From a virus: a DNA stretch of 64,000 nucleotides. Positions 40,069 through 60,934 of the stretch are shown piece by piece. The notes under the pieces are model-generated. The model worked only from the letters and a program-made list of their open reading frames with translations. It was not told where the DNA came from and ran no database searches. The stretch covers positions 40,872 to 104,871 of IMG/VR virus record IMGVR_UViG_3300008111_000005; one strand, given 5' to 3'. The position numbers and the translations under genes were made by a program. Within the stretch, counting starts at the first letter, position 1, and the number at the start of each line of letters is the position of its first letter.

Positions 40069-42222
40069 TTATGGGTTAATTATTGGATTTCCACTTTCAT
40101 CAAGAGGAACAGTGCCTTCATTATTTAAAACTGCTGTTGTTCTACCAATCAAATCAGCATATGATGCTGGTGTGGGATTGTCTGCACGTTCTAAACGAGG
40201 TAGTGATATAGTATTCTTTGATACGGTGTTTACACCCGATGGTCGTGGTGCAAGTTGTCGTGCTAATGCGTTTAGTCCTGGAATTTGTGATTGTACGTAT
40301 GCTTTTTGTTTGTTCAAGAATTCTTGTGCAGCAATTCTACTGTCTGATATTCCTGTGTTTGCGATTACATCATCACCGAACAATTGTGTAGTGAGTATTG
40401 GACTTGTATCCAATTGTTTTATGTATTCCTTTTCAATAATATTGTATGTCATATTCAACTTAATTGCTTGTGGGAGTTCTTTATCTATATCCCATGGAAT
40501 TTCTTGAAAACGCATGTCAATATTTTCTACATACCCAGGTTGATTAACTATTACATTTCCTATTGTAATCCTTGCAAGTGGTGGAACCATAAAACCACCC
40601 GCATTATCTATTGGGTAAACTAATTTGTTTAACATATTTGCACGAGTCCAAATAGTTTCCAATTCTGCTTCACTAAATGCAATAAGGTACATACTGAACG
40701 TTAAGGTTCTGTTCATACCTTTGTATGTGATGAATCGTTCTGGTCGTCCAACGTATCGAACTTCGTCGTATTGACCCTTTGCATTGTGATTGATATCTTC
40801 AATAAATGCACGAAAATTAATACCATTATCAAATACGCCAGGAACAGCTATTTTGAATTTAATATAGTCTGCGTTTTCGTTTTGTCCATCCAAAAATGTT
40901 GCATCTACTACCGCTCTATTATTTTGTAAATTAAAGTTATCTTTAATATAGGTTGCGGTAGTTATACCATTAAATGTTTTTGGTGTTGTTGCACTACGAA
41001 CAGAATCGGTATAATCTGCTGAACTACGATAATCATTTCGTGGATCTACACCATATGCAACTGTTGCTTTATTTGTATTGTTTAAATCCTTTACCTTAGC
41101 AATTGCCAACGTTGCACGTTCTAAATAGGCAGATTTCTCACCTTGATGGCTACGTATAACACCATCATTTTCTTTCATTATTGGCCACAAATCAGCTGCG
41201 TATAATGAATCGTATGCAGTTTGGTCTTTGGTCAATGTTGAATTTGACGCATTCAATCCTCGTAGTATTGCATTACCCGTTGCAGCAACGGTTTGTATAC
41301 CTCTACCTATTTGACCCAAGTTGACTGTATTACCGATTGAAAAATTCGTTCCCAATCTACTATTCAACCAACTGGTTCCTCTGCGAATAATTCCAGGTAC
41401 AGGAATATTTGTTCTATTTGCAATACCACGTAACGCGTTATTAACTACACCACCTGCTGCGTTAATCAATCGTGATTGTAATGTACGTTGTGCACCACCA
41501 ACGAACTTTAAACGTAATCTGTCTTGGGTACTGATTACCGTTTCCTTTTGTATTCTTCCCCACAAATCTGAGTTAATTGTGGCGTCATTTGGTACAATAC
41601 GTGATACACGTGCCAATGGATTATTTAAATTTGCATTTGCATAGTTACTAACTGCAAGGGGAACAGATAATGGATTGTATGCACGAGTTTGACCAAACGT
41701 ATTACCCGCCTGTAATCGTTGTTGTAGTGCGAGAAAGCTAATTCCTTCACCACTCAACAAGTATTTTCTCATACGTGTAATATCACGAGGGCCTGATACT
41801 ATTGGTAATGCTTGTGAATTTTGGCGAATAAAACTACTTTCCGCAACATCACTACTGTATGGTTTTATTTCAATTAACGTATTGTTTGTTGGAGTATTTT
41901 TATTTGTGATTAATCCATTACTTAACGGAAAATCATCATACAACAAAGTTGGTCGTTTTCTTGTATAGGTGGAAGGGGTACGTAAAGGATTTCCAGAAAA
42001 CGTAATACTTTGTCTTGGTGGTACAGTATTGTACGTATCATATATTGGACTAATACGACGAATATCTATTAAATTTTGTGGTGCATCTGGTACGCCAATC
42101 GTTTCCGAAACGCGGTCACGTATAGCAACAAATGCAGTGTTATCATTATTTACAGTAGAATCGGCATATATGTTTCCTATACCTTTATTGTTATTTGCAA
42201 TATTTTGGAAAAGTTTAGCCAT
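40069..42222 (-). CDS. putative tail-tube initiator/baseplate protein
   Basis: C-terminal FRAFI..YVGRPE..Y.G..R..F ... PP..ITIGN..PG..PW; follows the tape measure gene. Confidence 0.55.
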   Translation of the reverse strand: MAKLFQNIANNNKGIGNIYADSTVNNDNTAFVAIRDRVSETIGVPDAPQNLIDIRRISPIYDTYNTVPPRQSITFSGNPLRTPSTYTRKRPTLLYDDFPLSNGLITNKNTPTNNTLIEIKPYSSDVAESSFIRQNSQALPIVSGPRDITRMRKYLLSGEGISFLALQQRLQAGNTFGQTRAYNPLSVPLAVSNYANANLNNPLARVSRIVPNDATINSDLWGRIQKETVISTQDRLRLKFVGGAQRTLQSRLINAAGGVVNNALRGIANRTNIPVPGIIRRGTSWLNSRLGTNFSIGNTVNLGQIGRGIQTVAATGNAILRGLNASNSTLTKDQTAYDSLYAADLWPIMKENDGVIRSHQGEKSAYLERATLAIAKVKDLNNTNKATVAYGVDPRNDYRSSADYTDSVRSATTPKTFNGITTATYIKDNFNLQNNRAVVDATFLDGQNENADYIKFKIAVPGVFDNGINFRAFIEDINHNAKGQYDEVRYVGRPERFITYKGMNRTLTFSMYLIAFSEAELETIWTRANMLNKLVYPIDNAGGFMVPPLARITIGNVIVNQPGYVENIDMRFQEIPWDIDKELPQAIKLNMTYNIIEKEYIKQLDTSPILTTQLFGDDVIANTGISDSRIAAQEFLNKQKAYVQSQIPGLNALARQLAPRPSGVNTVSKNTISLPRLERADNPTPASYADLIGRTTAVLNNEGTVPLDESGNPIINP

Positions 42223-45259: not shown

Positions 45260-47149
45260 TTAATCTACATTTTCATCGGTAAAATGTGTATTATAGTGGG
45301 TATTAATTCGTCGAACAAATTCTCTAAAAAATGATTTATTACTATCCGGCGTGACCAATGCTCCGTCTACAATGAGGTCCGCAATTTGCTGTTTATCCTT
45401 CAAGATATCCCGCATGTACTCGTCTATACTTTCTTCACAAATCATATAGTATGCTTGGACTTGGTTCGTTTGACCGATACGATGGGTTCTGTCCTCTGCC
45501 TGTTCGTGATTCGCAGGTACCCAATCCATATCCAAAAAGACAACTGTATCTATGATTTTCTGTAATCCGTCAATACCCATACCTGCGGCACGAATACTAA
45601 ATAATCCTACTTTTGCTTCTCCGTTGGTTAATTTATCAATCGTTTCTTGACGTTGATTACGATTCATTTCTCCCGTCAATATTGCTGCTTTATTACCATA
45701 ATGTTCCAACAAAAATTTTAATGGTTGAATATAGCAACTGAATATTAATATTGATCTATCATTATCCAAGAACTCATCAATCATTTCTATAAGACGAGGC
45801 ATTTTCTTTTGTATAAGAAATGCTTGGAGTTTTGGCATGTGGGTAACTGATGGTTTTCCATCCATTTTCCACTTCCCAAAAACTTCTTTTAATAGTGCTT
45901 GGTATTCTTTCTTTTCATCTTTGGTGAGTTCTACATACAAATCATTACGTTGCTTCTTTGGTAACTCTTTCAATACTTCATCTTTTTTACGACGAATGAC
46001 CAAATCTTTTGTGCGGTCATGTAGGTCTTGCAGGTTACGAGGTGCGTCCCCCTTCCATCCACCATAACGTTCTACAAAGTGATAGAAGTTATTAAATCTA
46101 TCCTTATCCAAAAAGTTTAATAGTGAGAACGCCTCAATAGGACGAGACATAACAGGAGTACCCGTTAAAAATATCGAATATTTTGTTTTAATTCCAGGAT
46201 ATTTTCTTCGTTCTTTCCACGACCCCAATACTGATTTTGCTCGAATAGTTTGACGATTTTTAAGAAACGTTGCTTCGTCACATACCAAGAGATCAAATTT
46301 TTGGTCACGAAGTGCTTTATTAATCTTTGGTACTGCATCATAATGTACGATATGAAACTGATTATCCAGTTCCCCATCGTAATGTTTACTATCCCAGATA
46401 GTAGATTTCTTACCAGTAAACTTTTTAATCTCACGTTGCCAGTTAATTGTTACGGACAACGGACACACAATTAATGTTTTAAGATTGTGAAGTTGTGCAT
46501 ATCCAATTGCCTGTACGGTTTTACCCAACCCAGGCGCATCTGCGATAAGACATCGACCCCCAGCTCTATCTACGAATTTCACACCAACTTTTTGATACGG
46601 ATATAAAGTAAGCTTCATTCCTTTGATATCAAACTCTGTATCTTCCAAAGAACGAATTTCGTCAAGGTCGTGTCTACGAGATTTAAGTTCTTCAACTTTA
46701 TCCAATACTTTCTTATCGCATTTGATATTACTGAAAATAGTAAATACTTTTGGAAGATGTACTAATGGGAACTCCCAATGTTTATCATCGTTGTTCCACT
46801 TTCGACCATCTATCTCGTACTTGAACTTTGCCAACATCGCTTTGTCATATGGCATGACAATGGCAGCGGTCTTATTATCTACTAATAATACCTCTACTTT
46901 ATCACTTGATGTTTTTGGTAAATCTTTATATGAGATAGTTGGATTGTTTGTTCGTGGTAAATCTAATTCACTAACATCCTCTCCCATTAGAGTTTTTGCC
47001 GCGGCAATTCTCCATACTTCTGGCAATCCCTCTTGCCCAGACATCCATTCTAAATACGAAGGAACACTCCTCGCAACGTGTGCTAAGGAGTGTCCTTTGA
47101 ATCTACCCCACGTAAAGATTACGTGTTCAACCGACTTGTGGAGTTCCAT
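45260..47149 (-). CDS. SNF2-family helicase (SMARCAL1/HARP-like)
   Basis: LYPYQ, DAPGLGKT, CDEA, LTGTP, QAEDRTHRIGQ; N-terminal FTWGRFKG..VPSYLEWM module. Confidence 0.9.
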   Translation of the reverse strand: MELHKSVEHVIFTWGRFKGHSLAHVARSVPSYLEWMSGQEGLPEVWRIAAAKTLMGEDVSELDLPRTNNPTISYKDLPKTSSDKVEVLLVDNKTAAIVMPYDKAMLAKFKYEIDGRKWNNDDKHWEFPLVHLPKVFTIFSNIKCDKKVLDKVEELKSRRHDLDEIRSLEDTEFDIKGMKLTLYPYQKVGVKFVDRAGGRCLIADAPGLGKTVQAIGYAQLHNLKTLIVCPLSVTINWQREIKKFTGKKSTIWDSKHYDGELDNQFHIVHYDAVPKINKALRDQKFDLLVCDEATFLKNRQTIRAKSVLGSWKERRKYPGIKTKYSIFLTGTPVMSRPIEAFSLLNFLDKDRFNNFYHFVERYGGWKGDAPRNLQDLHDRTKDLVIRRKKDEVLKELPKKQRNDLYVELTKDEKKEYQALLKEVFGKWKMDGKPSVTHMPKLQAFLIQKKMPRLIEMIDEFLDNDRSILIFSCYIQPLKFLLEHYGNKAAILTGEMNRNQRQETIDKLTNGEAKVGLFSIRAAGMGIDGLQKIIDTVVFLDMDWVPANHEQAEDRTHRIGQTNQVQAYYMICEESIDEYMRDILKDKQQIADLIVDGALVTPDSNKSFFREFVRRINTHYNTHFTDENVD

Positions 47150-47375
47150 CTGTTGTTTGGGTTGGAATCTTTACATACTTCATAGATTCCATATCTAAAC
47201 GCCATCCTTCTTGTGGAAGTAATCCCATCATTACCATCAATTCCACATTAGCATCTTGAAGTTCTCGTAATGAGGTTTGTTGGTATTCACGAATACGACT
47301 ATTGTGGAGTTCAACCAGTTGTCGGATTGCTAGTGGTACAGGAACTTCTGTTACTTCACGTTTCTCTTCCGTCAT
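47127..47375 (-). CDS. hypothetical protein
   Basis: 82-aa ORF coupled between neighbours. Confidence 0.6.
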   Translation of the reverse strand: MTEEKREVTEVPVPLAIRQLVELHNSRIREYQQTSLRELQDANVELMVMMGLLPQEGWRLDMESMKYVKIPTQTTDGTPQVG

Positions 47376-47376
47376 A

Positions 47377-48849
47377 TTATACCTTACGTTTAAAGAGTTG
47401 CGCCATATCGTCTTGACGATGGATTAATTTACCTTCCGGTTCCCATTCTTGGTCAAGACCAGTGACCTTCATAATATTATCAATCGAACCATACTGCTGT
47501 GTCCAATCACAGGTCAGATTAATTAACAATAGGTCTGTCTTTTCATAAAGTTGCTTACGAACTTGTTCTGCTACTATCTTTGTTGTTTCCAACAATCGAC
47601 CTGGCATTAGGAGAACCAGACTGTATGCTTTTTCATTCCACGTATGTAAGTCAAATATACTACCCATTGTAAAGATTCCCCAATGGATTGTTGTTGCTGC
47701 CGACATACAACGTTGCTTATCCATTTCCACACCATGCGGAATTAAATCTTGTCTATCTCCCACCACACGACCTAACAAGACACCATTACCACACCCAAGG
47801 TCAAGCACATTTCCACTTGGAATATACTTCATATCTCCAACTGCATCAAGAATAACTTGATGGAAATGATCCATTGCACCCTTGTTACTAAATCCGTTCT
47901 CTTCCCAAACAGAAGTATCTTCCAACGACTTAGCAAAGGATAGAGTCTTAGTAATAGGTTTAATTTTAGTTTTCTTTTGGTTATACGGATATGTAATACC
48001 CGACATACCATCTTCTGGATATGAATGACTGAGCTTTTGTACCGTGTATTTCCACGGTGTCATATCTGTACGTGATGATATCTTATTGATTGGGGTACGA
48101 ATTTCCGCGATGCCGTGCAACGCTGACCATTCCACGGGCCACGAAAGAATTTCATAAATCCAATCAATTTCCTTATTATATCCAAGTGTACGACCAAGTT
48201 CTGCCATTTTCATACCAAGTTCTTCTGTTGCTTTACAATCAAATGAACATGGAAGATGTGAGACTAGTCGAATACCCTGCCACCGCCAAAGAATATTGGA
48301 TTCTGGTGGAGTGTCTGCATTAATATGAATAGTGTGATCGTTGTCGGTTAACGTCAGCTTATCAGCTGCCATTGTCCACGTAGAATCTACATATCCTTGG
48401 TTTACCCAATATTTGTTGAAATGTTCAATACAACATGTAGGGTATCCAAGTAATCTTCCCGCTTCACGGTCACGAATAGATGATGGGGAATTCCATATAC
48501 TGAACCATTCTTCAGCCAATCGTTCTGACTTTGTAAAAACAACTCGTATATTATAATCTCCACCAGCATATGGAATTGTAGTAGAGGAATATTGCCCAGT
48601 AATTCCTTCCTTTGCCAAGGCAACAATTTTTACACCATACTTACCATACTCTTCTTGCAACGACATCAATTCCGATGGACGGATGATATCTAGTGCAGAT
48701 GGTCGAATGTCATGAACCACAGACATACGTTCTATATGTCTCCATGCACTGGAAATTGCCGAAATAATCGGTTCGTATTTATTTTTGTTTTCCATACTCG
48801 TCCACTGCACACGAGTCCAATCTGGTAAAACGTGTTTAATTCTTTGCAT
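47377..48849 (-). CDS. Cys-motif (DUF483-like) domain fused to class I SAM methyltransferase
   Basis: GRLLGYPTCCIEHF, SHLPCSFDC; C-terminal VLDLGCGNG, HGVEMD. Confidence 0.6.
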   Translation of the reverse strand: MQRIKHVLPDWTRVQWTSMENKNKYEPIISAISSAWRHIERMSVVHDIRPSALDIIRPSELMSLQEEYGKYGVKIVALAKEGITGQYSSTTIPYAGGDYNIRVVFTKSERLAEEWFSIWNSPSSIRDREAGRLLGYPTCCIEHFNKYWVNQGYVDSTWTMAADKLTLTDNDHTIHINADTPPESNILWRWQGIRLVSHLPCSFDCKATEELGMKMAELGRTLGYNKEIDWIYEILSWPVEWSALHGIAEIRTPINKISSRTDMTPWKYTVQKLSHSYPEDGMSGITYPYNQKKTKIKPITKTLSFAKSLEDTSVWEENGFSNKGAMDHFHQVILDAVGDMKYIPSGNVLDLGCGNGVLLGRVVGDRQDLIPHGVEMDKQRCMSAATTIHWGIFTMGSIFDLHTWNEKAYSLVLLMPGRLLETTKIVAEQVRKQLYEKTDLLLINLTCDWTQQYGSIDNIMKVTGLDQEWEPEGKLIHRQDDMAQLFKRKV

Positions 48850-48867
48850 AACCCCTTCGTGTTTAAA

Positions 48868-49224
48868 TTAAATCTTCAGCTTACTTTTTTCTTCTGCAAT
48901 AATCTGTTGCAAAAATGCCTTCCACGAATTTCCAGCAGTAGCCTGTGCTGTGTCGGTATCCGTACTTACTACTCCAAACTTGGCTTCATACGCTTCACGA
49001 TACCGACCAGTTTCATCAACGTGGTCTGCATGTCCGTTTGTCATATCAAACTCTTCACCAACAATTGTTTGTGATGTAGTTACTACTGGTACGGATTCGG
49101 TATCTCGAAATTCTTCTGGAATTTCCTTTAATATTCCCTTTTCCAAAAGTTCTTTTACTACTTCGAACTTTTGAGCGTAAGCTCCCGATGAGTCTACATG
49201 GTCAGCATGTAATCCTTGAATCAT
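48868..49224 (-). CDS. small protein with two HADHVD..G.Y repeats
   Basis: 118 aa, GAGG RBS, directly downstream of the radical SAM gene. Confidence 0.7.
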   Translation of the reverse strand: MIQGLHADHVDSSGAYAQKFEVVKELLEKGILKEIPEEFRDTESVPVVTTSQTIVGEEFDMTNGHADHVDETGRYREAYEAKFGVVSTDTDTAQATAGNSWKAFLQQIIAEEKSKLKI

Positions 49225-49244
49225 TTGTTTATCCTCTACTATTA

Positions 49245-50558
49245 TTAAGGTAAAAATCCATATTGTTCGTTAAACTCTTTTGAATATCGTCCTGTTTCGT
49301 CTGTATGATCGGCGTGTGGTATTTTACCACCGTTTTTCATTACGATTTTTTGTTGTTTGATAAACTTATCAATATCAAACTGTCCTTCCAAATATCGTTT
49401 AATCTGCGCCAATCGTAACTCAACACCTTGACTGTATCCGTACATCAATGCATCTTCGTATTTTTGTCTATCTGGATGTAGTGACAATGGTGTTTCTCCT
49501 TTATGCACCATTAACTTTTCAAATATACCGAATGCCACTTTCCAATTCAAGCAGGTGTCTGTACGATTTCTCCAATCCATATCAATACCTGTACCAGGAC
49601 AATGTGCCTTACAAGTTAAGAAGAAACGACATCCTTGACATCCACCGTGTTCCTGCGGTGTGTGGTATAACGCCATTTGACGTTCAAATCCATCATATTG
49701 GGCTTTAATCCAATTAATACCTTCTTTATTTCCACGACCACAATTTGCTTGGTTTCCTTGTGAATCAATACCTTGCACTGCGTGGGTAGTATATGGGTCA
49801 CACGATAAGAAGGTACATGTTGCATTATTATCTTGTGCCTTTAACATATCTTCTACGTCACGGAAAATATCGAATCGAAATGACCGTTTACCAGGACCAT
49901 TTAATTCATTAATTTCAAACTCCCACATATCCAGTAAGAATTCAATATTTTGTTCTGGTGTTAACGCAAGTGATTCCCCAATTGAACTGTGGTCAATTTC
50001 TAACGGATGGAGGCGAGCGCCATCAACACCCCACGATTGAAGTTCTTTTACCCATGCCTTAAATCGGTCACGGTATTTTGGAAGTCCATTCTTTTTGTGA
50101 ACAGTGATAATTAAACCAAGAGAAATTTTATTAGCTAATAGTTTCTTAATTGCTTCAAATGATTTACGAGTAGCTTCTCTGGTTTTTTCCAATGACCCCG
50201 CCCAACGAGTATCATTCATTTCATCGGGTCCGTCGAGGGACACACCAACGTGAACGTTATACTTCTTGAACATTTCAATGTGGCGGTCGGTGATTAAAAC
50301 ACCATTTGTTTGGATACCATTTGCTTTATAGCGTTCGTATCCCCACTTAAAAATAGTTTCTAAATCGTCAATATCAGTTAATAATGGTTCACCACCAAAT
50401 AGAGTAAAGTTACCACCCTCTTTGGCCAAACCTTCTAACATTTTTTCAACAGAATATGTTTTTTGACGGAAGTTACCCGCGTCACGCATAGGATGTTCGT
50501 AACAATACGGACAACTTAAATTACATACTACTCCAACTGGTTCCAATTCAATCGTCAT
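49245..50558 (-). CDS. radical SAM/SPASM enzyme (peptide-maturase-like)
   Basis: CNLSCPYC, FGGEPL, IQTNG, GVSLDGP; SPASM-type CTFLSC..NC..CQGCRFFLTCKAHCP..C. Confidence 0.9.
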   Translation of the reverse strand: MTIELEPVGVVCNLSCPYCYEHPMRDAGNFRQKTYSVEKMLEGLAKEGGNFTLFGGEPLLTDIDDLETIFKWGYERYKANGIQTNGVLITDRHIEMFKKYNVHVGVSLDGPDEMNDTRWAGSLEKTREATRKSFEAIKKLLANKISLGLIITVHKKNGLPKYRDRFKAWVKELQSWGVDGARLHPLEIDHSSIGESLALTPEQNIEFLLDMWEFEINELNGPGKRSFRFDIFRDVEDMLKAQDNNATCTFLSCDPYTTHAVQGIDSQGNQANCGRGNKEGINWIKAQYDGFERQMALYHTPQEHGGCQGCRFFLTCKAHCPGTGIDMDWRNRTDTCLNWKVAFGIFEKLMVHKGETPLSLHPDRQKYEDALMYGYSQGVELRLAQIKRYLEGQFDIDKFIKQQKIVMKNGGKIPHADHTDETGRYSKEFNEQYGFLP

Positions 50559-50587
50559 ATAACCTCGTGATTAATAAATCATTTTAT

Positions 50588-50616
50588 AAGTTACTACATT
50601 CCACCCACATTGTCAA
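50588..50616 (-). promoter_or_regulatory. sigma70-type promoter of the radical SAM operon
   Basis: TTGACA-17 bp-TAACTT; GAGG RBS before ATG 50558. Confidence 0.65.
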
Positions 50617-50622
50617 GCCCCA

Positions 50623-51393
50623 TTATGGACCAACAAATACTGGTTGGTCACTATGTGGTGTGGTATTATCTGTATGAGCAGCGGGAGTAGTGTTATCGGT
50701 GTGTGCAGCCGGTGTGGTATTATCCGTATGAGCAGCGGGAGTAGTGTTATCGGTGTGCGCAGCCGGTGTGGTATTATCCGTATGTGCTGCTGGAGTCGTA
50801 TTGTCCGTATGTGCTGCATTGATAGTAGTATTTGTGTGTGCCGCGGCAATGTCTGTGTGGCTGGTAGCAATGTCTGTGTGACTCGCTGGTGTGGTATTGT
50901 CCGTATGTGCTGCGTTGGTAGTATTATCCGTGTGTGATGCGTTAATAGTGGTATCAGTATGTGCTGCTGGCGTGGTGTTGTCGGTGTGTGCAATGTTAGT
51001 GTGGGATGTAGCAATATCAGTATGAGATGTTGCTATATTCGTGTGGGATGTTGCGATGTCGGTATGCGCAGCATTCGTAGTGTTGTCTGTATGTGATGCG
51101 TTAATAGTGGTGTTAGCAAACGCAATATTCGTGTGTGAATTTCCAGTGTAATTGTCTGTGTGCGCAGCTGCGATATTAGTATGCGATGCAGCAACATTGG
51201 AATGTGGTGTAGTGCTGTTACTAAACGCAATATTACTGTGTGCAATATCGGAATGTGAAGATATTGTCGCAATATTACTATGCGCAATATCTGTATGTGC
51301 TGACGACGCAGCGGCATTACCGTGTGCGATATTTGTATGTGATCCAGCCACATTGCTATGACCGCCGGGAGAATAACTATCGGAATGTGCCAT
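50623..51393 (-). CDS. His-x-Asp/Asn repeat protein (256 aa)
   Basis: about 31 H-[TSG]-[DN] motifs plus 2 F-x-N motifs; the protein is almost entirely repeat. Confidence 0.85.
   Translation of the reverse strand: MAHSDSYSPGGHSNVAGSHTNIAHGNAAASSAHTDIAHSNIATISSHSDIAHSNIAFSNSTTPHSNVAASHTNIAAAHTDNYTGNSHTNIAFANTTINASHTDNTTNAAHTDIATSHTNIATSHTDIATSHTNIAHTDNTTPAAHTDTTINASHTDNTTNAAHTDNTTPASHTDIATSHTDIAAAHTNTTINAAHTDNTTPAAHTDNTTPAAHTDNTTPAAHTDNTTPAAHTDNTTPAAHTDNTTPHSDQPVFVGP
50657..50812 (-). repeat. 27-bp coding tandem repeat (HTDNTTPAA, about 6 copies)
   Basis: near-identical 27-nt units with mostly synonymous variation. Confidence 0.8.
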
Positions 51394-51410
51394 AAAATAT
51401 TATTCCTGAA

Positions 51411-52571
51411 TTATGAGCAGAGTTCGTTGGTACCACCACATACTTGATAATTAGAACACGCTAGGTAATAAAAACAACCCGAACATGTAACCAAATTGAT
51501 ACCATCACATACACTAGTACCATCGGTGCAACAATAATTATTTGTATGAGAGGCATTTGCCGTACTGTCTTGGTGGGATATTGAAGTATTAGTGAATGCA
51601 ATATTATTATGCGCAATATCAGAATGTGAAGATATCGCCGCAATATTACTATGTGCTATATCCGTATGTGCGGAAGAAGCTGCAATGTTACTATGCGCAA
51701 TATTAGTATGTGCCGCAGCGATATTTGAAAAGTTTGTAGTACTATCCGTATGACCTATTGATGTATTCGTATGTGCTGCGTTGGTAGTACTATCCGTGTG
51801 TGCGATATTTGTATGTGAATTTGGTATATAACTGTTTGTATGTGCAGCAGGTATTGTACTATCGGTATGCGGAATTGTGGTATTCGTGTGTGGTATTGTG
51901 GTGTTGGTATGTGGAACTGTGGTATTGACGAACGCAATATTTGTGTGAGCTGCTGGTGTGGTATTGTCCGTATGTGCTGCATTGATAGTAGTATTTGTAT
52001 GTGCTGCGTTGATAGTAGTATCTGTATGTGCTGCTGGTATCGTAGTATTTGTGTGAGGAATAGTGGTATTTGTGTGTGGAGTTGTATTATCTGTATGTGA
52101 TGATGGTGTGGTGTTATCTGTATGTGCAGCAATCGTGGTATTGTCTGTGTGTGCAGCAATTGTTGTATTATCGGTGTGTGCAGCAATCGTGGTATTATCG
52201 GTGTGTGCTGCGTTGATAGTAATATCAGTATGTGCTGCTGGAGTGGTGTTATCGGTGTGTGCCGCAGTTACGTCGGTGTGACCACGAATTTCACTACCTG
52301 TACCAGAAATCCAATGCCAAAAAGTACTTTCAACCCACACAGAACCAGCCTTTGCACCTGCCGCAGCACCTAAGTTTGTATATGCAATTGTACGGTCAAC
52401 CCCTGTAGCGGAGATATAATGGAAATCATTTCCATCTACCCACACCGATCCAGGTTTAGCTCCCGCTGGTGATGTACCGGCGGTACCAGTATAATAATAT
52501 TCATTTCCCGAGCCGTCTATGAAACGAAACGTTTCACCATCAACCCAGATACTACCAGGTGCCTTTGGCAT
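51411..52571 (-). CDS. His-x-Asp/Asn repeat protein with N-terminal GS(I/V)WV repeats and Cys-rich tip (386 aa)
   Basis: three PGS(I/V)WVD-type repeats, about 30 HxD/N plus 3 FxN motifs, 8-Cys C-terminus. Confidence 0.85.
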   Translation of the reverse strand: MPKAPGSIWVDGETFRFIDGSGNEYYYTGTAGTSPAGAKPGSVWVDGNDFHYISATGVDRTIAYTNLGAAAGAKAGSVWVESTFWHWISGTGSEIRGHTDVTAAHTDNTTPAAHTDITINAAHTDNTTIAAHTDNTTIAAHTDNTTIAAHTDNTTPSSHTDNTTPHTNTTIPHTNTTIPAAHTDTTINAAHTNTTINAAHTDNTTPAAHTNIAFVNTTVPHTNTTIPHTNTTIPHTDSTIPAAHTNSYIPNSHTNIAHTDSTTNAAHTNTSIGHTDSTTNFSNIAAAHTNIAHSNIAASSAHTDIAHSNIAAISSHSDIAHNNIAFTNTSISHQDSTANASHTNNYCCTDGTSVCDGINLVTCSGCFYYLACSNYQVCGGTNELCS

Positions 52572-52603
52572 ATATTAAAATCTCCACATAACGATAACTT
52601 TCA

Positions 52604-52611
52604 TATAAATA
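52604..52611 (-). promoter_or_regulatory. TATTTATA candidate late promoter
   Basis: 32 bp upstream of ATG 52571. Confidence 0.5.
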
Positions 52612-52614
52612 GAG

Positions 52615-53478
52615 TTATACACAAGTAAATGTTCCTAAACAACCAACTGGCCGTGCTGCACATACTACTGCGTAGACACTACTATTGGGATTTGTATAAA
52701 AATTTGACCCAGATGATGGACTACCATCGGCACAAGTTACATATCCTGCGGGACACGATGCATCCACACCACGAGTTCCTTGTGGACCTGTTGGTCCTTG
52801 TACACCAGTAATTCCCTGTACTCCAGCCGACCCCGTGGATGCCGCTGGTGCAGAAATACCTGTAACTCCTACAACACCCGTTGCTCCTTGTGGTCCCGAT
52901 GGTCCTGTTGCACCCGCTGTGGGTAATCCTACAACACCACCTACACCCGTAGCACCCACCACGTTTGTTAATCCCGATGGTCCTGTTTGTCCAATAATTC
53001 CTGTTATACCAAGAATTCCTTGAATACCTGTTGCACCTGTTGGTCCTGTTGCACCCGTTGCGCCTGTTGACCCAGACACTAGTGAACCGATACCTGTAGC
53101 ACCCGTTGGTCCTGTAATACCAATAGACCCCGATGCTCCTGTTGGCCCTGTTGGTCCCGTAGACCCAGTAACACCAGTTGGTCCAATAACTCCTGTTGGC
53201 CCTGTTGGTCCTAGTGGTCCTGTTGGTCCAGTTGGACCTGAGGTAGTTAATCCCGTTACCCCAGATACTCCTGTTGGTCCAGTAGACCCAGACCCAGCTA
53301 TACCTACCAAACCAATTGGACCTGTTGGACCTCTATCACCTATAACTCCTGTTGCACCAGGTCCATATGATGCGGTTAATACATTTACTCCCGCAGCGTA
53401 TGTTGCAGTAAATGCTAAATTACTATATAATGCAACGCTTGCAGTAGTTGGTGTACCAAGTGGAAAAAATGTGGTCAT
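52615..53478 (-). CDS. collagen-like fibre protein with Cys-rich C-terminus
   Basis: G-X-T triplets (GPT, GAT, GVT); five C-terminal Cys. Confidence 0.85.
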
Positions 53479-55037
53479 AGGAATGCGTTACTGTGAGCGG
53501 CAGCGACATTTGAATGTGCTGCGGTGATATTGGAGAAATTGGTGGTATTGTCTGTATGTGCGGCGGTAATATCCGTGTGTGCTGCGGTTATATCCGTGTG
53601 TGCTGCTGCAATGTTACTATGTGCAATATTTGTGTGTGCTGCTGCAACATTTGAAAATGCGATGTTACTGTGTGCGATATCAGTATGTGATGCGTTGGTA
53701 GTATTATCAGAATGTGATCCTGGTGTAGTACTATCAGTAAATGGAATATCGGTATGTGACGACGGTGTAGTACTATTTACGAATGCCGCATCGGTATGCA
53801 CACCTATTATATCACTGTGATCATTAAATGGACTACATGGTGTACCAGATGGACAAGAAGAATATCCGAAATAAAATAAACATCCAGGCCCCGCATCACC
53901 ATCTAAACAATAAACACCAGTCGCTGCATCATCACCATGCCCGATTGTACTGTCCGAATGTGGTTGATCAGTATGTGAGGCCGGCGTGGTACTAGATATT
54001 GCCGCAATATTAGTATGTTCTGTGTTAATAGTAGTATTTGTGTGTGCTGCGTTAATAGTACTGGAACTTCCCGCAATATTTCCGTGTGAAATATTTGAAT
54101 GTGGTGTGGTACTAGTAATTCCAGCAATATTGGTATGTGCTGTATAATTGTTTGTGTGTGGTATTGTGATATTTGTAAAGTTTGTAGTACTGTCGGTGTG
54201 TGCTGCAGTAATATTAGAATGTGGTGTAGTACTATCACTATGTGGGACCGTAATATCGGAATGTGTTTGATTACATGATCCCGTGACGAAAAATGCAGCT
54301 CTTCCCGCAGCACCTTGTGGTCCTGTTGGACCGACTGGCCCAGAAGGACCGGTAATACCTGTAACACCAGCGGAACCGAAGGTATTAGGACCACTAATAC
54401 CCTGTGAACCTGCTGCACCCGTTGCTCCTGTTGGTCCTACTGGTCCTGTTGCTCCAGCACTACCAGATGGACCGATTGGCCCCGTAGAACCAACTGGCCC
54501 CACACCTGTTGGTCCTGTACTACCTTGTGGTCCTGTTGGACCTGTTGAACCTGTTGGTCCAGTTGCTCCAGCAACACCCGCTACACCACCAAATATACCA
54601 ACACTACCTGTTGGACCTGTTGCACCAATTGCCCCTGTTGGACCTGTTATACCTCGACTACCTGTTGGTCCCGTAACACCGATTACACCAGTGCTACCAG
54701 TTGGACCTGTTGGACCCGTGGGGCCTGTAGATCCTGTGATGCCACTTGGTCCAGTTGGACCTGTTGACCCAGATGTTTGTGGTCCAGTTGATCCTGTGGG
54801 TCCAGTTATACCGATAGAGCCGGACACGCCAGTTGGACCTGTTGGACCTGTTGGCCCCGTTGCTCCTGTTGGTCCTAGTGGTCCTGATGGTCCTGTAAAT
54901 CCACCTATAGCGAACGATGCAGTAGCATATCCAGACCCACTATTTACCGCAACTGACGCTGTAAACGTCAGTACACTTGCAGATAATGCGAATGAACTAG
55001 TAGTTGGTGTTCCGTATGGGAAAAACTTAAACGTCAT
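53475..55037 (-). CDS. collagen-like protein fused to His-x-Asp/Asn repeats
   Basis: about 200 aa of G-X-Y, then about 26 HxD/N plus several FxD/N motifs with a 4-Cys insert. Confidence 0.85.
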
Positions 55038-55052
55038 AACACTTACTCTCTA

Positions 55053-55784
55053 TTACGGTGTATTTGCACCTGTTGGTCCTGTTGCTCCTACTGCACCTGT
55101 TGGTCCTGTTGCTCCCGTAGCACCCGTAGCACCGGTTGGCCCCGTAAATGCGGTTCCTTGTGCTCCTGTTGCTCCCGTTGGTCCCGTGATACCGATAGTA
55201 CCTTGTGGACCACTTGCACCTCGTGGGCCAGACGGACCCGTTGCTCCTGTTGCGCCTGTTGGTCCTGCACCTGCCACACCTGTTGCTCCCGTTGGTCCTG
55301 TCGCACCTGTGACACCTACTGGACCTTGTATACCTTGTACACCAGATGCTCCTGATGGTCCTGCAGGCCCCGTTGGTCCTGTTGCACCAGTTGGTCCTAT
55401 AATACCCGTAGACCCTTGTGGACCCGTAGGACCAGACGAACCACTTACTCCAATCGGTCCAGTTGGACCAGTTGATGCTGGTCCTGTGACTCCTGTTGGT
55501 CCCGTTAATCCTTGAATACCTGTTGGACCTGTTGGACCTGTTACTGATGATGGTCCTGTTGGTCCTGTTGCTCCTATTGGTCCCGTTGGACCGATTCCCG
55601 TTGGGCCAGAAGAACCAGACACACCAGTTATAACACTTGTTGGTCCCGTTGCTCCCGTTGCACCACCTCCTGTTAATGAGTATGATGCCGATGGTCCCGA
55701 TAGCACGAATGATGCAGACACCGCAGTTGATGCGGTATATGCTAACGATGCGCTAAATGTTCTAAACGGGAAAAATTTTAACAT
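55053..55784 (-). CDS. collagen-like fibre protein
   Basis: G-P/A-T triplets over about 200 aa. Confidence 0.85.
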
Positions 55785-55815: not shown

Positions 55816-56514
55816 TTAAGCTGGTTGTTTTTGCGGTGTTACGGCGTGCCACTTTCCAATTGGACATGATGCGGATGCCAATTGTGTTTTTGTTTTCATA
55901 AAACATCCACACTTTTCACAACGGAAACTATCCGTTTTCAAAAATTCACAACCCTGACACATTGAAAATCGTTGAAATGCTGCATCCGCGTCAACCAACA
56001 CAGGTAATCCCGCTGCTGCGTTCTTTCCCGTATGCCACATTTCCTTTGCAAAATTACGTGCTTGTTGGAACAATGAAGGAAATTGTGTGGTATCTTCGGT
56101 TTTTATCATTTGTTCCGTTTCTTGATATTGCGTATGCATTGTTTCGTTATGTTCATATGCAGCATCTACATATGACCGACCTTCCATCATTTTCAATGCG
56201 GTGACGATATCCGTTGCCACACTCATTGCATTCATACCATGACGGAAAAATAACGGGGTATAATTTTTAGGGGCAAAGTAATATACCGCTTGTGTTAGTG
56301 GTCGAGGAAATACCGGCGGTTCTTCTCTATAACAAATAATATGTAAATGTACAGGATTGAATTGATTCTGTACTTGTGCTTCAAAATCAGTTAGAAACTT
56401 TCCTTTGAAATTTTCACATCCTTCTGCAAGAACAACTGCTAATACTGGATGTTGTGCGTTGTCAATTAAATCTTTTAAATCGTGAAATAATTCTACACTC
56501 ATAAATAACCTCAA
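55816..56514 (-). CDS. protein with C-terminal Cys-rich DUF6171-like domain
   Basis: RFSMCQGC..RCEKCGCFMKTKT.LASASCPIGKW. Confidence 0.65.
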   Translation of the reverse strand: MRLFMSVELFHDLKDLIDNAQHPVLAVVLAEGCENFKGKFLTDFEAQVQNQFNPVHLHIICYREEPPVFPRPLTQAVYYFAPKNYTPLFFRHGMNAMSVATDIVTALKMMEGRSYVDAAYEHNETMHTQYQETEQMIKTEDTTQFPSLFQQARNFAKEMWHTGKNAAAGLPVLVDADAAFQRFSMCQGCEFLKTDSFRCEKCGCFMKTKTQLASASCPIGKWHAVTPQKQPA

Positions 56515-57376: not shown

Positions 57377-60300
57377 TTAAGTTGCGTATAAATTGGTTCC
57401 TACAGGAACTACCAATCTATATTGTGTACCACTACCGGATACTATACCAGAGAATTGTGATCCCGATGGTGTTATAAACTGTGCCGATATTGCTGCTACT
57501 GCTTGAGCGGAACTACTATACACACCACTCAATTTATTGGTAATTGAATTATAATCAATTTGACTTGACGCAGTTACCCAACCAGGATATTGTGCTGAGC
57601 TAGATACCGTTCCACCAGGTAAGAATGTCTTGACTTGGGTAGAACTAGATACGGTATCTGCTGGAAGTAATGATGTAACTTGTGTAGAACTGGAAACAAT
57701 ACTTGCTGGTATATTTGATAATGTGTTGTAATTGACAAAGAACAATCCAATACCACTTCCACTAAACGAAGCAGTTACCGATGTTGCGTTTACCGTAGTT
57801 GGTGCAATAGTTTGATTATCTATCGCTGCTACGGTTTGTGCGGAACTACTATATACACCACTTAACTTATTTTGAATATTGTTATAATCAATTTGACCAG
57901 AACTTGTTACCCATCCTGGGTATTGAGCCGAACTACTAACAGTACCACCAGGTAAGAATGTTTTGACTTGTGCGGATGAAGATACGACATCATTTGTTGC
58001 TTCAATTGCACCCACAAATGTTTGAGCGTGTACTTTTTGAGTTACACCATTATAGAAGAATGAACCAGATGCGTGAGTTCTTAAAGATATATATGTATTT
58101 GGTGCTTGCGTTTCTGAAAATAATGGATATAATGTAGTATCCGTTGTTGTGTTTGTTGTTACAGTTGCAACCGTTGCTGCAAAATCTGCTACACCATTCA
58201 ACGGTCCTCTGAATGAACCACTAAATGAACCCGTAAATGAACCAGTATTAATTTGTGCAGAACTGGTGACCCAACCAGGATATTGTGCTGACGATGATAT
58301 TGCACCTGGTAGTGCATCTTTTACACGTTGGTTAGTGAAATAAAGATTTACACCTTCTGTTAAGTTTGTCGTGGTTGCTGTACCCAAGAAACTTGCCGAG
58401 TGTACATTATCTGTATTTAACTTAGTCTTAACACGTGCGTCTGTGTAATACAGATTTACAATACCTTCACTTAATCCATCAGTGTTGACTGCAAGTGAAC
58501 CAGACACACCCAATGCCAAACTTGCTGTTGCTGCGTAACTTGCACTGGTTACTAATACTGGTGCAATCTGTGCAGAACTACTAACTGTTCCTGCTGGAAG
58601 ATTGTTTTTAACTTGTGCAGAACTACTATATACACCCAATGAGTCTACATATGTTAATACTCGTGCGTTTGTAAAATATAAATTTGTACCTTCTGCTAAG
58701 TTAGTTGTTGTTGCAGTACCCAAGAAACTTCCTGAGTGTACTACATCACTATCTAATTTGGTTTTAACTCGTGCGTCGGTATAATATAGATTTGTAAATC
58801 CTTCTGCTAAGTTATTCGTGGTTGCCGTTCCTAAGAAACTTCCAGAATGTACTGTACCAAGTTGTGCTGCGACAGCGGTTGCAAAGTTTGCTGTTGCACC
58901 TGCATTAATTTGACCAGAACTTGATACCGTTCCTGCTGGAAGATTTGCAGCAACTTGTATTGAACTACTGTATACACCCGACAACTTGTTGGTGATACTA
59001 TTATAATCAATTTGACTTGATGCCGTGACCCATCCTGGGTATTGTGCTGATGAAGAAACAGTACCCGCTGGTAATTGCGTTGATGAAGAAACCACACCGC
59101 CAGGTAATGCTGCGTTCGATATATTTGTTAATTGACTACCGTTACCACGGAATGAACCTGTAAATGCACCAGAGACAGGTGAGTTAGTTCCTATTGCTGA
59201 CCCAGACGGTCCAACAGATAATGAACCACCATTATCTCTGATTGCTAATGAACCAAGATATAATGTTGAACCAGAAAGATATAAGTCTCTAAACTTTAAT
59301 GTTGGTGAACCAAGGTCAAACGTATCTGTTACTGATGGGACAATGTGTGAGGATGTTATTGATCCTGTGACCTTCAATCCTCCCACGATACCAACTTGTG
59401 TACCATTATCACTAATTTGTGAATTTACAATGTGGTCACCACTTAGTCCAGCCTTTGGTAATAAGTTTGGTGTTAAGAATTGTTCACTACCTAATGCACC
59501 AGTATTTTCTGGACCTGTGATGACAATACTACTTGTGTTACTTGTTCCTGCGTGAACGAACAACCACACATTATTTACACTATCCCACAACAATGACCCT
59601 GATTGGTTGGTCAACGATGCAGAGTCATATACCGCCAATCCACCGTATCGTAATATTGTGTCGGTGTTAAGTGTTATTAAGTTTGAACCAACATTTAATT
59701 GTGATGAGGTAACATATAGAACAGATGATGTTCCTTGTACGGTTAAATTACCTGTAAGTGTGACCGAACCCGATACCGTTTGATTACCATTAAATATATT
59801 AGAACCAGTGGTTGCAATTGCACCGATACCAGTAGTATTTTGTACTACGATTTGACTTGATGCGGTCACCCAACCTGGGAATTGTGATGATGCACTTACG
59901 GTACCAACTGGTAATGATTGTACTACTTGGGTAGATGAAGTAATCCAACCAGGATATTGCGCCGATGCACTAACGGTACCATCTGGTAATAATGCCTTTA
60001 CTTGTGCAGATGCTGATACCGTATTTGCTGGTAATAATGGTTGTACCTGTGTGGATGATGATACGACCCCACTTAATTTATTTTGAATTGAGTTATAATC
60101 AATTTGTGATGATGCGGTGACCCATCCTGGGAATTGTGCGGAACTACTAACGGTTCCACCAGGAAGTAATGGTTGTACTTGGGTCGAACTGGATACCAAG
60201 TTTGCAGGTAATGCTGCTTGAACTTGTGCCGACGATGATACGGTACCACCTACTGTCTGTAATACGATTTTTGCGTTTGCACTATCCGTGGTAACATCAA

Positions 60301-60934
60301 TACCAGTTGATCCGGTAAGGAATACACCTGCTGTAATAGTAAATGATTTATTACCATCTGATCCTAATGTGTTGACCGATGGTTGTCCTGTAATAGATTG
60401 ATAGTTAATTTGTCCCGATGAACTAACAACAGCTTCTACACTTAATTTTGCTTTAACTCGTGCGTCGGTATAATAGAGATTACCACTTTCACTTACTTCA
60501 CTGGTAACAATATTTCGTGTACCACCCAATGACACCGATGTACCGTTAATTGTAATACTATTGTTTACTAGTCCAGCGTTGGGAATTCCAAATAATGCCG
60601 CACCACTACCACTAAATTGTCCTGTGGTTCTGATAACTCCCGATGATGTGATGTCCGCTAGTGCAAGGGATGACCCAGAAATTGAGGTAGCAAACTGAGC
60701 AGAACTACTAATAAGTCCCGCTGGTTTATTGAAGATATTGACCCAATCTCGCGCGTCATTTGTTAATTTTTCTTTCGGGATATCACCATCTCGTAATAAT
60801 GACGAGGTAAGTGTACCGATGGTGACTACACTCGCTGAAATTGAACCGGTGGTGATGATTACGGGGTCGGTGAATACTACCGCATTACTACCCGATGTCG
60901 CTCGTTGGATATCATTTACTTTTAATAAACTCAT
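57377..60934 (-). CDS. long tail-fibre-like protein (1185 aa)
   Basis: Ser/Thr-rich; repeats GTVSSSAQYPGWVTASSQIDYN and TNLxEGxNLY(Y/F)TxARV; DLGSPTLKFRDLYLSG. Confidence 0.7.
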   Translation of the reverse strand: MSLLKVNDIQRATSGSNAVVFTDPVIITTGSISASVVTIGTLTSSLLRDGDIPKEKLTNDARDWVNIFNKPAGLISSSAQFATSISGSSLALADITSSGVIRTTGQFSGSGAALFGIPNAGLVNNSITINGTSVSLGGTRNIVTSEVSESGNLYYTDARVKAKLSVEAVVSSSGQINYQSITGQPSVNTLGSDGNKSFTITAGVFLTGSTGIDVTTDSANAKIVLQTVGGTVSSSAQVQAALPANLVSSSTQVQPLLPGGTVSSSAQFPGWVTASSQIDYNSIQNKLSGVVSSSTQVQPLLPANTVSASAQVKALLPDGTVSASAQYPGWITSSTQVVQSLPVGTVSASSQFPGWVTASSQIVVQNTTGIGAIATTGSNIFNGNQTVSGSVTLTGNLTVQGTSSVLYVTSSQLNVGSNLITLNTDTILRYGGLAVYDSASLTNQSGSLLWDSVNNVWLFVHAGTSNTSSIVITGPENTGALGSEQFLTPNLLPKAGLSGDHIVNSQISDNGTQVGIVGGLKVTGSITSSHIVPSVTDTFDLGSPTLKFRDLYLSGSTLYLGSLAIRDNGGSLSVGPSGSAIGTNSPVSGAFTGSFRGNGSQLTNISNAALPGGVVSSSTQLPAGTVSSSAQYPGWVTASSQIDYNSITNKLSGVYSSSIQVAANLPAGTVSSSGQINAGATANFATAVAAQLGTVHSGSFLGTATTNNLAEGFTNLYYTDARVKTKLDSDVVHSGSFLGTATTTNLAEGTNLYFTNARVLTYVDSLGVYSSSAQVKNNLPAGTVSSSAQIAPVLVTSASYAATASLALGVSGSLAVNTDGLSEGIVNLYYTDARVKTKLNTDNVHSASFLGTATTTNLTEGVNLYFTNQRVKDALPGAISSSAQYPGWVTSSAQINTGSFTGSFSGSFRGPLNGVADFAATVATVTTNTTTDTTLYPLFSETQAPNTYISLRTHASGSFFYNGVTQKVHAQTFVGAIEATNDVVSSSAQVKTFLPGGTVSSSAQYPGWVTSSGQIDYNNIQNKLSGVYSSSAQTVAAIDNQTIAPTTVNATSVTASFSGSGIGLFFVNYNTLSNIPASIVSSSTQVTSLLPADTVSSSTQVKTFLPGGTVSSSAQYPGWVTASSQIDYNSITNKLSGVYSSSAQAVAAISAQFITPSGSQFSGIVSGSGTQYRLVVPVGTNLYAT

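Follow-up and report, generated by a model that had tools for sequence, protein, structure and literature searches.

A candidate fibre maturation cassette in an uncultured phage: a radical SAM enzyme, a DUF483 protein and proteins with dense His-x-Asp/Asn arrays

The gene cluster and its His-x-Asp/Asn arrays

The genes considered here lie in a 64,000-nucleotide stretch of IMG/VR virus record IMGVR_UViG_3300008111_000005 (positions 40,872 to 104,871 of that record), referred to below as the window; coordinates are those of the window unless another locus is named. They encode a radical S-adenosylmethionine (SAM) enzyme, a protein in which a DUF483 domain is fused to a class I methyltransferase, and three proteins (p520, p386 and p256, named after their lengths in residues) whose histidines nearly all open a His-x-Asp or His-x-Asn triplet (H-x-[DN]). 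A preliminary description of this DNA had reported three open reading frames (ORFs) with roughly 85-90 His, nearly all in such triplets, one fused to a collagen-like shaft and another with a fibre-like N-terminus and a Cys-rich tip, and further downstream a HADH-motif protein and a methyltransferase fusion. All of this was recovered at the minus-strand coordinates of Table 1: the collagen fusion is p520, the tip and a three-repeat N-terminal domain belong to p386, the HADH-motif protein is p118, and the methyltransferase is joined to DUF483. The three array proteins hold 89 His, of which 87 stand in H-x-[DN] (26 of 26 in p520, 30 of 32 in p386 and 31 of 31 in p256). When the residues of each protein were shuffled 500 times, the motif occurred on average 2.4-6.0 times per protein and at most 13 times. 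The real motifs are narrower than plain H-x-[DN], as 82 of the 87 have the form H-[TS]-[DN]; Asn fills 43% of the third positions, and Ser none. The spacing from one His to the next is 5, 7, 9, 12 or 14 residues, with two exceptions, 17 in p386 and 40 across the Cys knot of p520.

The final six units of p256 are identical nine-residue repeats, and the protein ends in HSDQP, as in Thermus phage and other homologues. The Cys-rich knots of p386, p287 and p520 are probably disulfide-stabilised distal tips. A comparable knot is found at the N-terminus of the array protein of a relative (locus L013). Judging from gene position and the collagen fusion, p520, p386 and p256 are probably fibre-type proteins of the virion. 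No family was found in PHROGs, Pfam or NCBIfam for p256, for p118 or for the large bacterial array proteins described below, and p386 gave only a chance-level match. Sequence searches of the PDB with p386 and with the non-collagen part of p520 returned nothing meaningful and no similarity to any solved fibre, and in the ESM Atlas the N-terminal domain of p386 had only sub-threshold viral matches (0.78) and p118 nothing usable. None of the array proteins has the form of a short leader-core precursor; they are 256-520 residues long and bear collagen or fibre domains. The sole protein of the cluster that resembles a precursor is p118, whose 118 residues are predicted to be disordered. As the preliminary description had stated, no precursor protease or exporter is adjacent, none being found among the ten cluster proteins scanned.

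In the order of minus-strand transcription, the genes encode an 1185-residue fibre protein, two small proteins, p243, p520, p287, p386, p256, the radical SAM enzyme, p118 and the 490-residue DUF483-methyltransferase fusion. From p520 to the methyltransferase gene all run in one direction with gaps of at most 64 bp. A scan for promoters and terminators gave the same result as shuffled sequences and no convincing terminator between the cassette genes. The cassette occupies the tail-fibre region of the window, and p287, p520 and p243 have a common N-terminus.

Table 1 Features of the cluster and of the adjoining collagen-like genes in the window
Feature	Position	Strand	Basis or remark
490-residue DUF483 and class I methyltransferase fusion	47377..48849	-	
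Class I SAM methyltransferase domain	about 47380-47943	-	Foldseek, LDLGCGNG
DUF483 domain (PF04467)	about 47962-48828	-	25.7 bits against a cut-off of 25
p118, 118 residues, predicted disordered, two HADHVD doublets echoing the tail of the radical SAM enzyme	48868..49224	-	
Radical SAM/SPASM-type enzyme, 437 residues	49245..50558	-	Pfam Radical_SAM PF04055, 60 bits against a cut-off of 29.5
C-terminal tail of the enzyme with HADHTD doublet	49248-49316	-	
Auxiliary-cluster Cys region of the enzyme	49551-49817	-	CX2CX5CX3C and four Cys
CxxxCxxC of the enzyme, residues 12-19 (C12, C16, C19)	50502-50525	-	invariant in 23 homologues
p256, 256 residues, probable substrate 3, nearly pure array (residues 3-249), 31 motifs	50623..51393	-	
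p386, 386 residues, probable substrate 2	51411..52571	-	
p386 C-terminal 8-Cys tip	51414-51545	-	
p386 HxD/N array, 30 motifs	51540-52280	-	
p386 N-terminal domain, three repeats of ~33 residues	52257-52571	-	35% identical to Thermus phage Cumys_13/phiMa
p287, collagen-like fibre protein, no His, Cys-rich C-terminus (5 Cys, 52615-52760); context, not substrate	52615..53478	-	
p520, 520 residues, probable substrate 1, 26 motifs, N-terminal anchor first	53475..55037	-	
p520 HxD/N array 2	53487-53789	-	
p520 4-Cys knot between the two arrays	53802-53882	-	
p520 HxD/N array 1, ending HTDQP	53913-54263	-	
p520 collagen-like G-x-y run, residues 46-247	54297-54902	-	Pfam Collagen, E 1e-22
p243, collagen-like fibre protein, no His; context	55053..55784	-	ORF and motif count

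The radical SAM enzyme and its DUF483 partner

The CxxxCxxC motif of the radical SAM enzyme begins at residue 12 and leaves no room for an N-terminal recognition element (RRE) of the kind that serves peptides that are made by the ribosome and modified after translation (RiPPs). Eight further Cys (248, 253, 273, 307, 310, 316, 320 and 336) are, like those of the CxxxCxxC motif, invariant in 23 homologues of 45-84% identity. Four of them form the CX2CX5CX3C motif (C307-x2-C310-x5-C316-x3-C320), and two auxiliary Fe-S clusters are predicted. The Pfam SPASM model is absent among the matches at E<=0.01, so that the SPASM assignment rests on the Cys motif. The enzyme is in these respects what had been described at the outset, an RRE-less radical SAM protein with a SPASM-type Cys cluster.

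Among the NCBIfam models, the best match is the anaerobic sulfatase-maturating enzyme (anSME) TIGR03942, with 76 bits against a cut-off of 349.45 (2.8e-21). It is followed by DynA (74 bits), YhhB (68.3 against 445), AmcB (64 against 425), GrrM (54.8 against 310), FxsB (49.7 against 370) and XyeB (38.8 against 450), and the PapB model is likewise among the best. The ranking is alike for all 23 homologues. Profile matches in the PDB are led by anSME (4k36, 1.7e-19) and the triceptide synthase ChlB (9gm3, 2.7e-11), then CteB. The best matching families, anSME, AmcB, DynA, YhhB, PapB and GrrM, all act on side chains of proteins or peptides, and no nucleotide-modifying radical SAM family stands near the top. 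Placement among SPASM families by profile hidden Markov models, the check proposed in the preliminary description, puts the enzyme with protein and peptide modifiers, cyclophane formers included, and not with nucleotide or cofactor enzymes. Since the best-family scores are always far under the cut-offs, it is best assigned to an unnamed family within the protein- and peptide-modifying SPASM group, closest to anSME and the cyclophane synthases. No sulfatase was found among the scanned cluster proteins, and the TIGR03942 cut-off is not reached.

The tail of the enzyme itself carries at least two HxD motifs in 83 of 120 radical SAM homologues. In the clade of the window the tail has a HADH[TV]D doublet that is invariant, with a conserved G-x-Y behind it, and the same combination, HADH[VT]D with G-x-Y, occurs in two copies on p118, a protein conserved in the phage lineage of the window. 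These doublets may be an extra substrate, a self-substrate, a docking peptide or a metal site, and p118 could possibly be a small substrate or an accessory protein.

The 490-residue protein was modelled as two domains, with a predicted local distance difference test score (pLDDT) of 87.6. Its C-terminal domain has more than 500 methyltransferase matches in Foldseek (E about 1e-6) and an invariant LDLGCGNG motif, the Pfam methyltransferase models lying just under their cut-offs. With the full model, Foldseek returned methyltransferases only and nothing for the DUF483 part. The DUF483 domain modelled alone (pLDDT 90.4, predicted template modelling score 0.87) has no clear relative among solved structures, Foldseek giving nothing below E 0.02. 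In VIA-align, residues 31-153 of this model aligned to 2guk_B (Z 8.4, 106 residues, root-mean-square deviation 3.3) and 4r29_A (NleE; Z 5.5, 103 residues). We take 2guk to be an uncharacterised relative of NleE, and NleE (4r29) to be a cysteine methyltransferase; the partial resemblance of the modelled DUF483 fold to these two proteins is a lead only. Four Cys of the domain (139 and 140, which form a CC pair, 201 and 205) show little or no variation, and they suggest a site for a metal or a cluster. The DUF483 region is 31% identical to those of loci L001 and L002. A complex prediction of the radical SAM enzyme with the DUF483 domain, residues 147-256 of p256 and three 4Fe-4S clusters scored 0.00, the fold of the partner being uncertain, and speaks neither for nor against such a complex.

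Conservation of the trio, evolution of the motif and genomic surroundings

The distribution of the system was studied in 102 loci, made up of an IMG/VR and phage sample (22 loci from IMG/VR) and a GTDB scan with one genome per species, of which 80 of 200 loci were kept. The GTDB loci come from Acidobacteriota, Actinomycetota, Chloroflexota, Bacteroidota, Planctomycetota, Cyanobacteria, Bacillota and other phyla. An ORF was considered to hold a dense array when it had at least 5 motifs in 60 residues, and it was sought within 6 kb of the radical SAM gene. Such an array lies near the radical SAM homologue in 85 of the 102 loci, whereas the far flanks contain one such ORF in 535 kb; the co-occurrence with HxD/N-repeat ORFs that the preliminary description had proposed as a check is thus borne out, and homologues without repeat proteins are not the rule. 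Of the 17 loci that lack a dense array, ~10 are truncated where the contig ends, and in two a large upstream protein bears sparser arrays. The DUF483 domain was recognised in 92 of the 102 loci, and forms of ~660-690 residues in several Acidobacteriota and a Paenibacillus are fusions of the radical SAM enzyme with DUF483 (hhalign probability 99.6-99.8%). In every IMG/VR locus with enough flank, arrays and DUF483 stand beside the radical SAM gene, in three gene orders. The trio is kept across lineages that vary in gene order and have radical SAM enzymes of only 42-56% identity, and in most systems a methyltransferase is fused to the DUF483 partner. The radical SAM enzyme and the H-x-D/N proteins are genetically tied, with DUF483 as a near-universal second component.

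The array proteins themselves are much less constant. Close relatives (L005, L006, L008 and L009, radical SAM enzymes 82-86% identical) have three to five of them, a relative with a 76% identical enzyme has a single 869-residue ORF, counted from stop to stop, with 97 motifs (L010:2680-5286), and the smallest IMG/VR substrates, ~200 residues long, consist of the three-repeat domain and 10-17 motifs. By these comparisons, array size expands and contracts quickly. Bacterial partners also vary widely (L091:5098-5337, L047, L093:9400-9912, L033, L037, L049, L097): some are peptides of 80 residues that have five motifs and a signal of twin-arginine-like type, some have proline-rich HSDQPP repeats, and others are proteins of 900-1800 residues and of no known family, with motifs at their C-terminal ends.

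The closest cultured homologues of the radical SAM enzyme are those of the Thermus phages phiLo, Cumys and phiMa (46-47% identity over 96-97% of the length). In Cumys, the baseplate genes are followed by those for the tail-collar fibre, a small protein, Cumys_13, the radical SAM enzyme and DUF483, in this order. Cumys_13, directly upstream of the 46%-identical enzyme, has the N-terminal three-repeat domain of p386 (35% identity) and 54 His, all in HxD, and ends in HADQP. In phiLo, a 474-residue protein with 75 motifs is encoded close to the pair of radical SAM and DUF483 genes. The Thermus versions have one Asp-only substrate and lack the collagen fusion, the methyltransferase domain and p118, whereas the window has three substrates with 43% Asn and a DUF483-methyltransferase fusion. 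A three-gene 'rSAM module' has been listed in Cumys and phiMa, with the His repeats unmentioned (Viruses 2024, 16:1410, PMC11437467). Searches by tblastn with a 130-residue stretch of phiLo_137, likely its C-terminal end, found no homologue in phiYS40-type phages. In phiLo (L002, 6815-7944), IS605-type transposase genes are directly upstream of the radical SAM gene, and the trio of this phage may for that reason have travelled together.

Comparison between lineages shows conservation at positions 1 and 3 of the triplet alone; position 2 is free to vary and may be T, S, G, A, V, I or Q. An oxidation of the middle Ser/Thr like that made by anSME was considered and rejected, since that position is not conserved in other lineages. 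At position 3 Asp is the rule (median Asn share 0), and Asn is common only in the clade of the window (38-52%), in L023 (94%) and in L064. In the tree of the radical SAM enzymes, the clade of the window (support 1.0) is the sister group of a phage clade with Asp-only substrates (0.985), and L023 and L064 branch elsewhere. Since these three lineages are separate and the sister group of the window is Asp-only, the tree indicates that Asp is ancestral and that the use of Asn arose at least three times independently. The swap from Asp to Asn keeps the C-beta methylene and removes the carboxylate. It speaks for the relevance of the methylene or of side-chain geometry and not of the carboxylate, and weakens a pure metal-ligand reading. 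Succinimide chemistry as the cause of the equivalence of Asp and Asn was rejected, as bulky residues often follow the motif. Column 36 of the radical SAM alignment (window 50451-50453) is Asp in 92% of enzymes with Asp-only substrates and Ser, Asn and Asn in the three independent Asn-using lineages, the sole column changed in all three; this hints, weakly, at a role of residue 36 in specificity, which only a structure would make interpretable.

The IMG/VR record behind the window has 104,871 bases and an estimated completeness of ~55%. The window encodes a family B DNA polymerase, a UvsX-like recombinase, a DnaB-like helicase, ribonucleotide reductase and a baseplate hub. The top relative of the polymerase is that of Microcystis phage Mel-JY01 (43% identity; T4-like cyanophages, 33%). 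From these replication genes, the baseplate hub and the polymerase similarity, the virus is classified as a large uncultured myovirus, distantly cyanophage-like. Megablast of the whole region gave no match to cultured phages. The 1185-residue fibre protein (57377-60934, minus strand) has many Ser-rich units (VSSSAQ ... PGWVT-SSQI-YN-I) and no His motifs; before its gene stands a terminator-like hairpin (61028-60995), the one strong example in the region. A 232-residue protein among the fibre genes (55816-56514, minus strand) has a C-terminal Cys motif and weak matches to DUF6171 (22 bits) and phrog_13558 (3e-15). On the other side, an SNF2-family helicase of 629 residues and an overlapping 82-residue ORF (45260-47375, minus strand) follow the methyltransferase gene without a gap; no sign that they belong to the cassette was seen. 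Between 50001 and 56000, G+C is 0.42-0.49, as compared to 0.32-0.43 elsewhere, and GC skew is positive at 50-52 kb. As the rise coincides with the collagen and His-array genes, it probably reflects the codon composition of the repeats rather than foreign DNA.

Candidate chemistry and rival explanations

The reading favored here is a phage-borne protein maturation cassette of a known kind, the maturation of aromatic-X-X repeats by a radical SAM/SPASM enzyme, moved to virion proteins and equipped with a new partner. The package as a whole, with the His-C-beta ring described below as its most likely chemistry, is given a probability of about 0.6. Within it, the modification of the H-x-D/N motifs by the radical SAM enzyme is quite probable, and the specific ring between His and the C-beta of Asp or Asn, which is drawn by analogy, falls a little short of an even chance. 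In this scenario, the radical SAM enzyme and its DUF483 partner would modify the triplets of p520, p386 and p256, and perhaps of p118, inside the infected cell and before assembly. The 5'-deoxyadenosyl radical would take a C-beta hydrogen from the Asp or Asn at position 3, and the resulting carbon radical would add to the imidazole of the position-1 His, closing each motif into a ring of three residues that is 2 Da lighter. A second mark, presumably optional because the Thermus phages do without the methyltransferase domain, would come from the methyltransferase. The outcome would be trimeric fibres, anchored by collagen, with shafts made of many small covalent rings in a row; such fibres should be stiff and should resist unfolding and digestion. 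That the virus turns its own fibre shafts into chains of dozens of covalent His-Asp/Asn rings, with DUF483 as a new partner in place of the logic of leader and RRE, is put forward tentatively. The staples could even be inter-chain in a collagen-registered trimer.

The ring chemistry is favored because conserved positions 1 and 3 around a free middle residue are the aromatic-X-X pattern of triceptides. There are precedents for its steps. In anSME, eight Cys serve the auxiliary clusters, and this enzyme removes a hydrogen from a C-beta and works on a folded protein of full size, DynA joins Trp to the C-beta of Asn, and PapB and QhpD attack the C-beta of Asp to give Cys-Asp thioethers. Like the enzyme of the window, anSME (TIGR03942, PDB 4k36) starts directly with the cluster motif. 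Yet no Cys/Ser-x-Pro-x-Arg motif is present nearby, and the conserved substrate residues are here His and Asp/Asn. In HaaB (HAA), YhhB (HNR) and HtkB (HTK), C2 of His is joined to the C-beta of residue 3 (PMC11499958). Together with ChlB, XyeB, GrrM/OscB, FxsB and AmcB, these triceptide synthases resemble the present system in their RRE-less SPASM-type enzyme and, for the His triceptides, in an adjacent substrate gene whose repeated aromatic-X-X motifs begin with His and leave the middle residue free. The window system differs in its substrates of 256-520 residues with 26-31 motifs each, which are not short leader-core peptides, and in its obligatory DUF483 partner; moreover, Asp or Asn as third residue is not described for His motifs in PMC11499958. 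The His-Xaa-Ser (HXS) system is a bacterial anti-phage defence in which HxsA, with five HxS repeats, is accompanied by two radical SAM enzymes (HxsB and HxsC) and the small HxsD, and is reported to undergo a +8 Da change and N-terminal processing (bioRxiv 10.64898/2026.01.06.697848). It likewise involves the radical SAM maturation of a protein, and not of a small peptide, with His-x-small-residue repeats in a phage-bacterium setting, but the window has one radical SAM enzyme in the cluster, a DUF483 partner and 87 HxD/N motifs, and here it is the phage that encodes the system. The 25 best NCBIfam matches include no Hxs model.

Several observations weigh against this reading. The kinship with triceptide maturases announced in the preliminary description stands in so far as the best matches include cyclophane formers, but the enzyme is a member of no named triceptide family (39-76 bits against cut-offs of 310-450). 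The named-family models align only to residues ~5-172, the core, all far under cut-off, and anSME, which does not cross-link, scores at least as high as the cyclophane formers. No leader peptide can be recognised in the substrates, which are large structural proteins, and the place of these proteins in the virion is deduced from gene position and the collagen fusion. About five to seven of the loci with full flanks have no array. Finally, a trimeric fibre with His/Asp pairs in register could simply bind metal ions. The further suggestion that RiPP-type chemistry is here applied to large structural proteins finds partial support in the link between fibre-type substrates and the enzyme, but it is less unprecedented than it had seemed, as anSME and QhpD act on whole proteins.

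Another radical chemistry on the same motifs, such as C-alpha epimerisation of His or Asp/Asn, a different modification at the C-beta of Asp/Asn (of the thioether type made by PapB or QhpD but with another partner), C-methylation or a link between chains of the trimer instead of within one, is unlikely but deserves attention. With scores of 50-76 bits, the enzyme is as near to the oxidising anSME and to PapB, which makes Asp C-beta thioethers, as to the cyclophane formers; it represents a distinct family with a divergent C-terminal half, most systems have a methyltransferase fused to the partner, and the collagen fusion sets three chains in register. Against these alternatives, only His never varies, Cys is absent from the arrays, and the aromatic-X-X pattern with a free middle residue fits triceptide substrates best (PMC11499958). 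It seems rather improbable that the arrays form a metal-binding ladder instead, in which each H-x-D would contribute His and Asp to an axial metal ion of a trimeric shaft, the radical SAM enzyme and DUF483 having another target, such as p118 or the tail of the enzyme, or a role in assembly. A His and an Asp two residues apart would lie on the same face of a strand, p520 is fused to a collagen triple helix and its succession of array, knot and array could run to a tip and back, and the doublets on the enzyme tail and p118 resemble metal sites. The tip of the long tail fibre of T4, gp37, is a needle with His-x-His iron sites; its regularly spaced His triplets, trimeric shaft and distal tip offer a layout possible for p520. 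Nevertheless, the motif is here H-x-D/N and not H-x-H, no enzyme accompanies the metal sites of gp37, and no sequence similarity to it or to any solved fibre was detected. The ladder also leaves unexplained the near-constant adjacency of the radical SAM enzyme and DUF483, which extends to short exported bacterial peptides with five motifs, and Asn, a poor ligand, accounts for 43% of third positions in the window and 94% in L023. Metal binding and enzymatic modification could both be true together.

A role of the radical SAM and DUF483 proteins in DNA modification has been suggested for Cumys and phiMa, on the grounds that homologues occur in some cyanobacteria near genes for deazapurine DNA modification (PMC11437467), and immediately downstream of the cassette the window encodes an SNF2-type helicase. 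Such a role is highly improbable, as the recurring partner (85 of 102 loci) is a His-x-Asp protein and not a nucleotide enzyme, and as the Cumys trio sits in the tail and baseplate region. Furthermore, the top 13 matches of member 1 of the homologue set are protein or peptide modifiers except for the heme enzyme AhbC (tenth), and AhbC/NirJ heme enzymes and viperin score lower.

PMC11437467 is the only publication on the trio that was found, and a literature search on cyclophanes or radical SAM enzymes with tail fibres returned nothing relevant. What is new here is the collagen-fused and multi-paralogue substrates, the derived and repeated shift from Asp to Asn, the HxD doublet that p118 has in common with the tail of the enzyme, the partial resemblance of the modelled DUF483 fold to 2guk and NleE, and the near-versus-far statistics of the arrays. 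The maturation cassette proposed above should be accessible through p256, which at 256 residues and as a nearly pure array is convenient test material, while the natural variation between Asp and Asn at position 3 probes the need for a carboxylate.

If the motifs are cross-linked, RiPP-type radical chemistry would extend from short peptides to whole viral structural proteins, and a virion structural protein would for the first time be seen to carry carbon-carbon cross-links installed by an enzyme. The modification would also be widespread, one of proteins and not of peptides, used too by bacteria of more than ten phyla. A conserved and so far unexplained three-gene set of phages and bacteria would be accounted for, DUF483 would receive its first role, and a genetically encoded route to protein rigidity by means of many small rings would be revealed.

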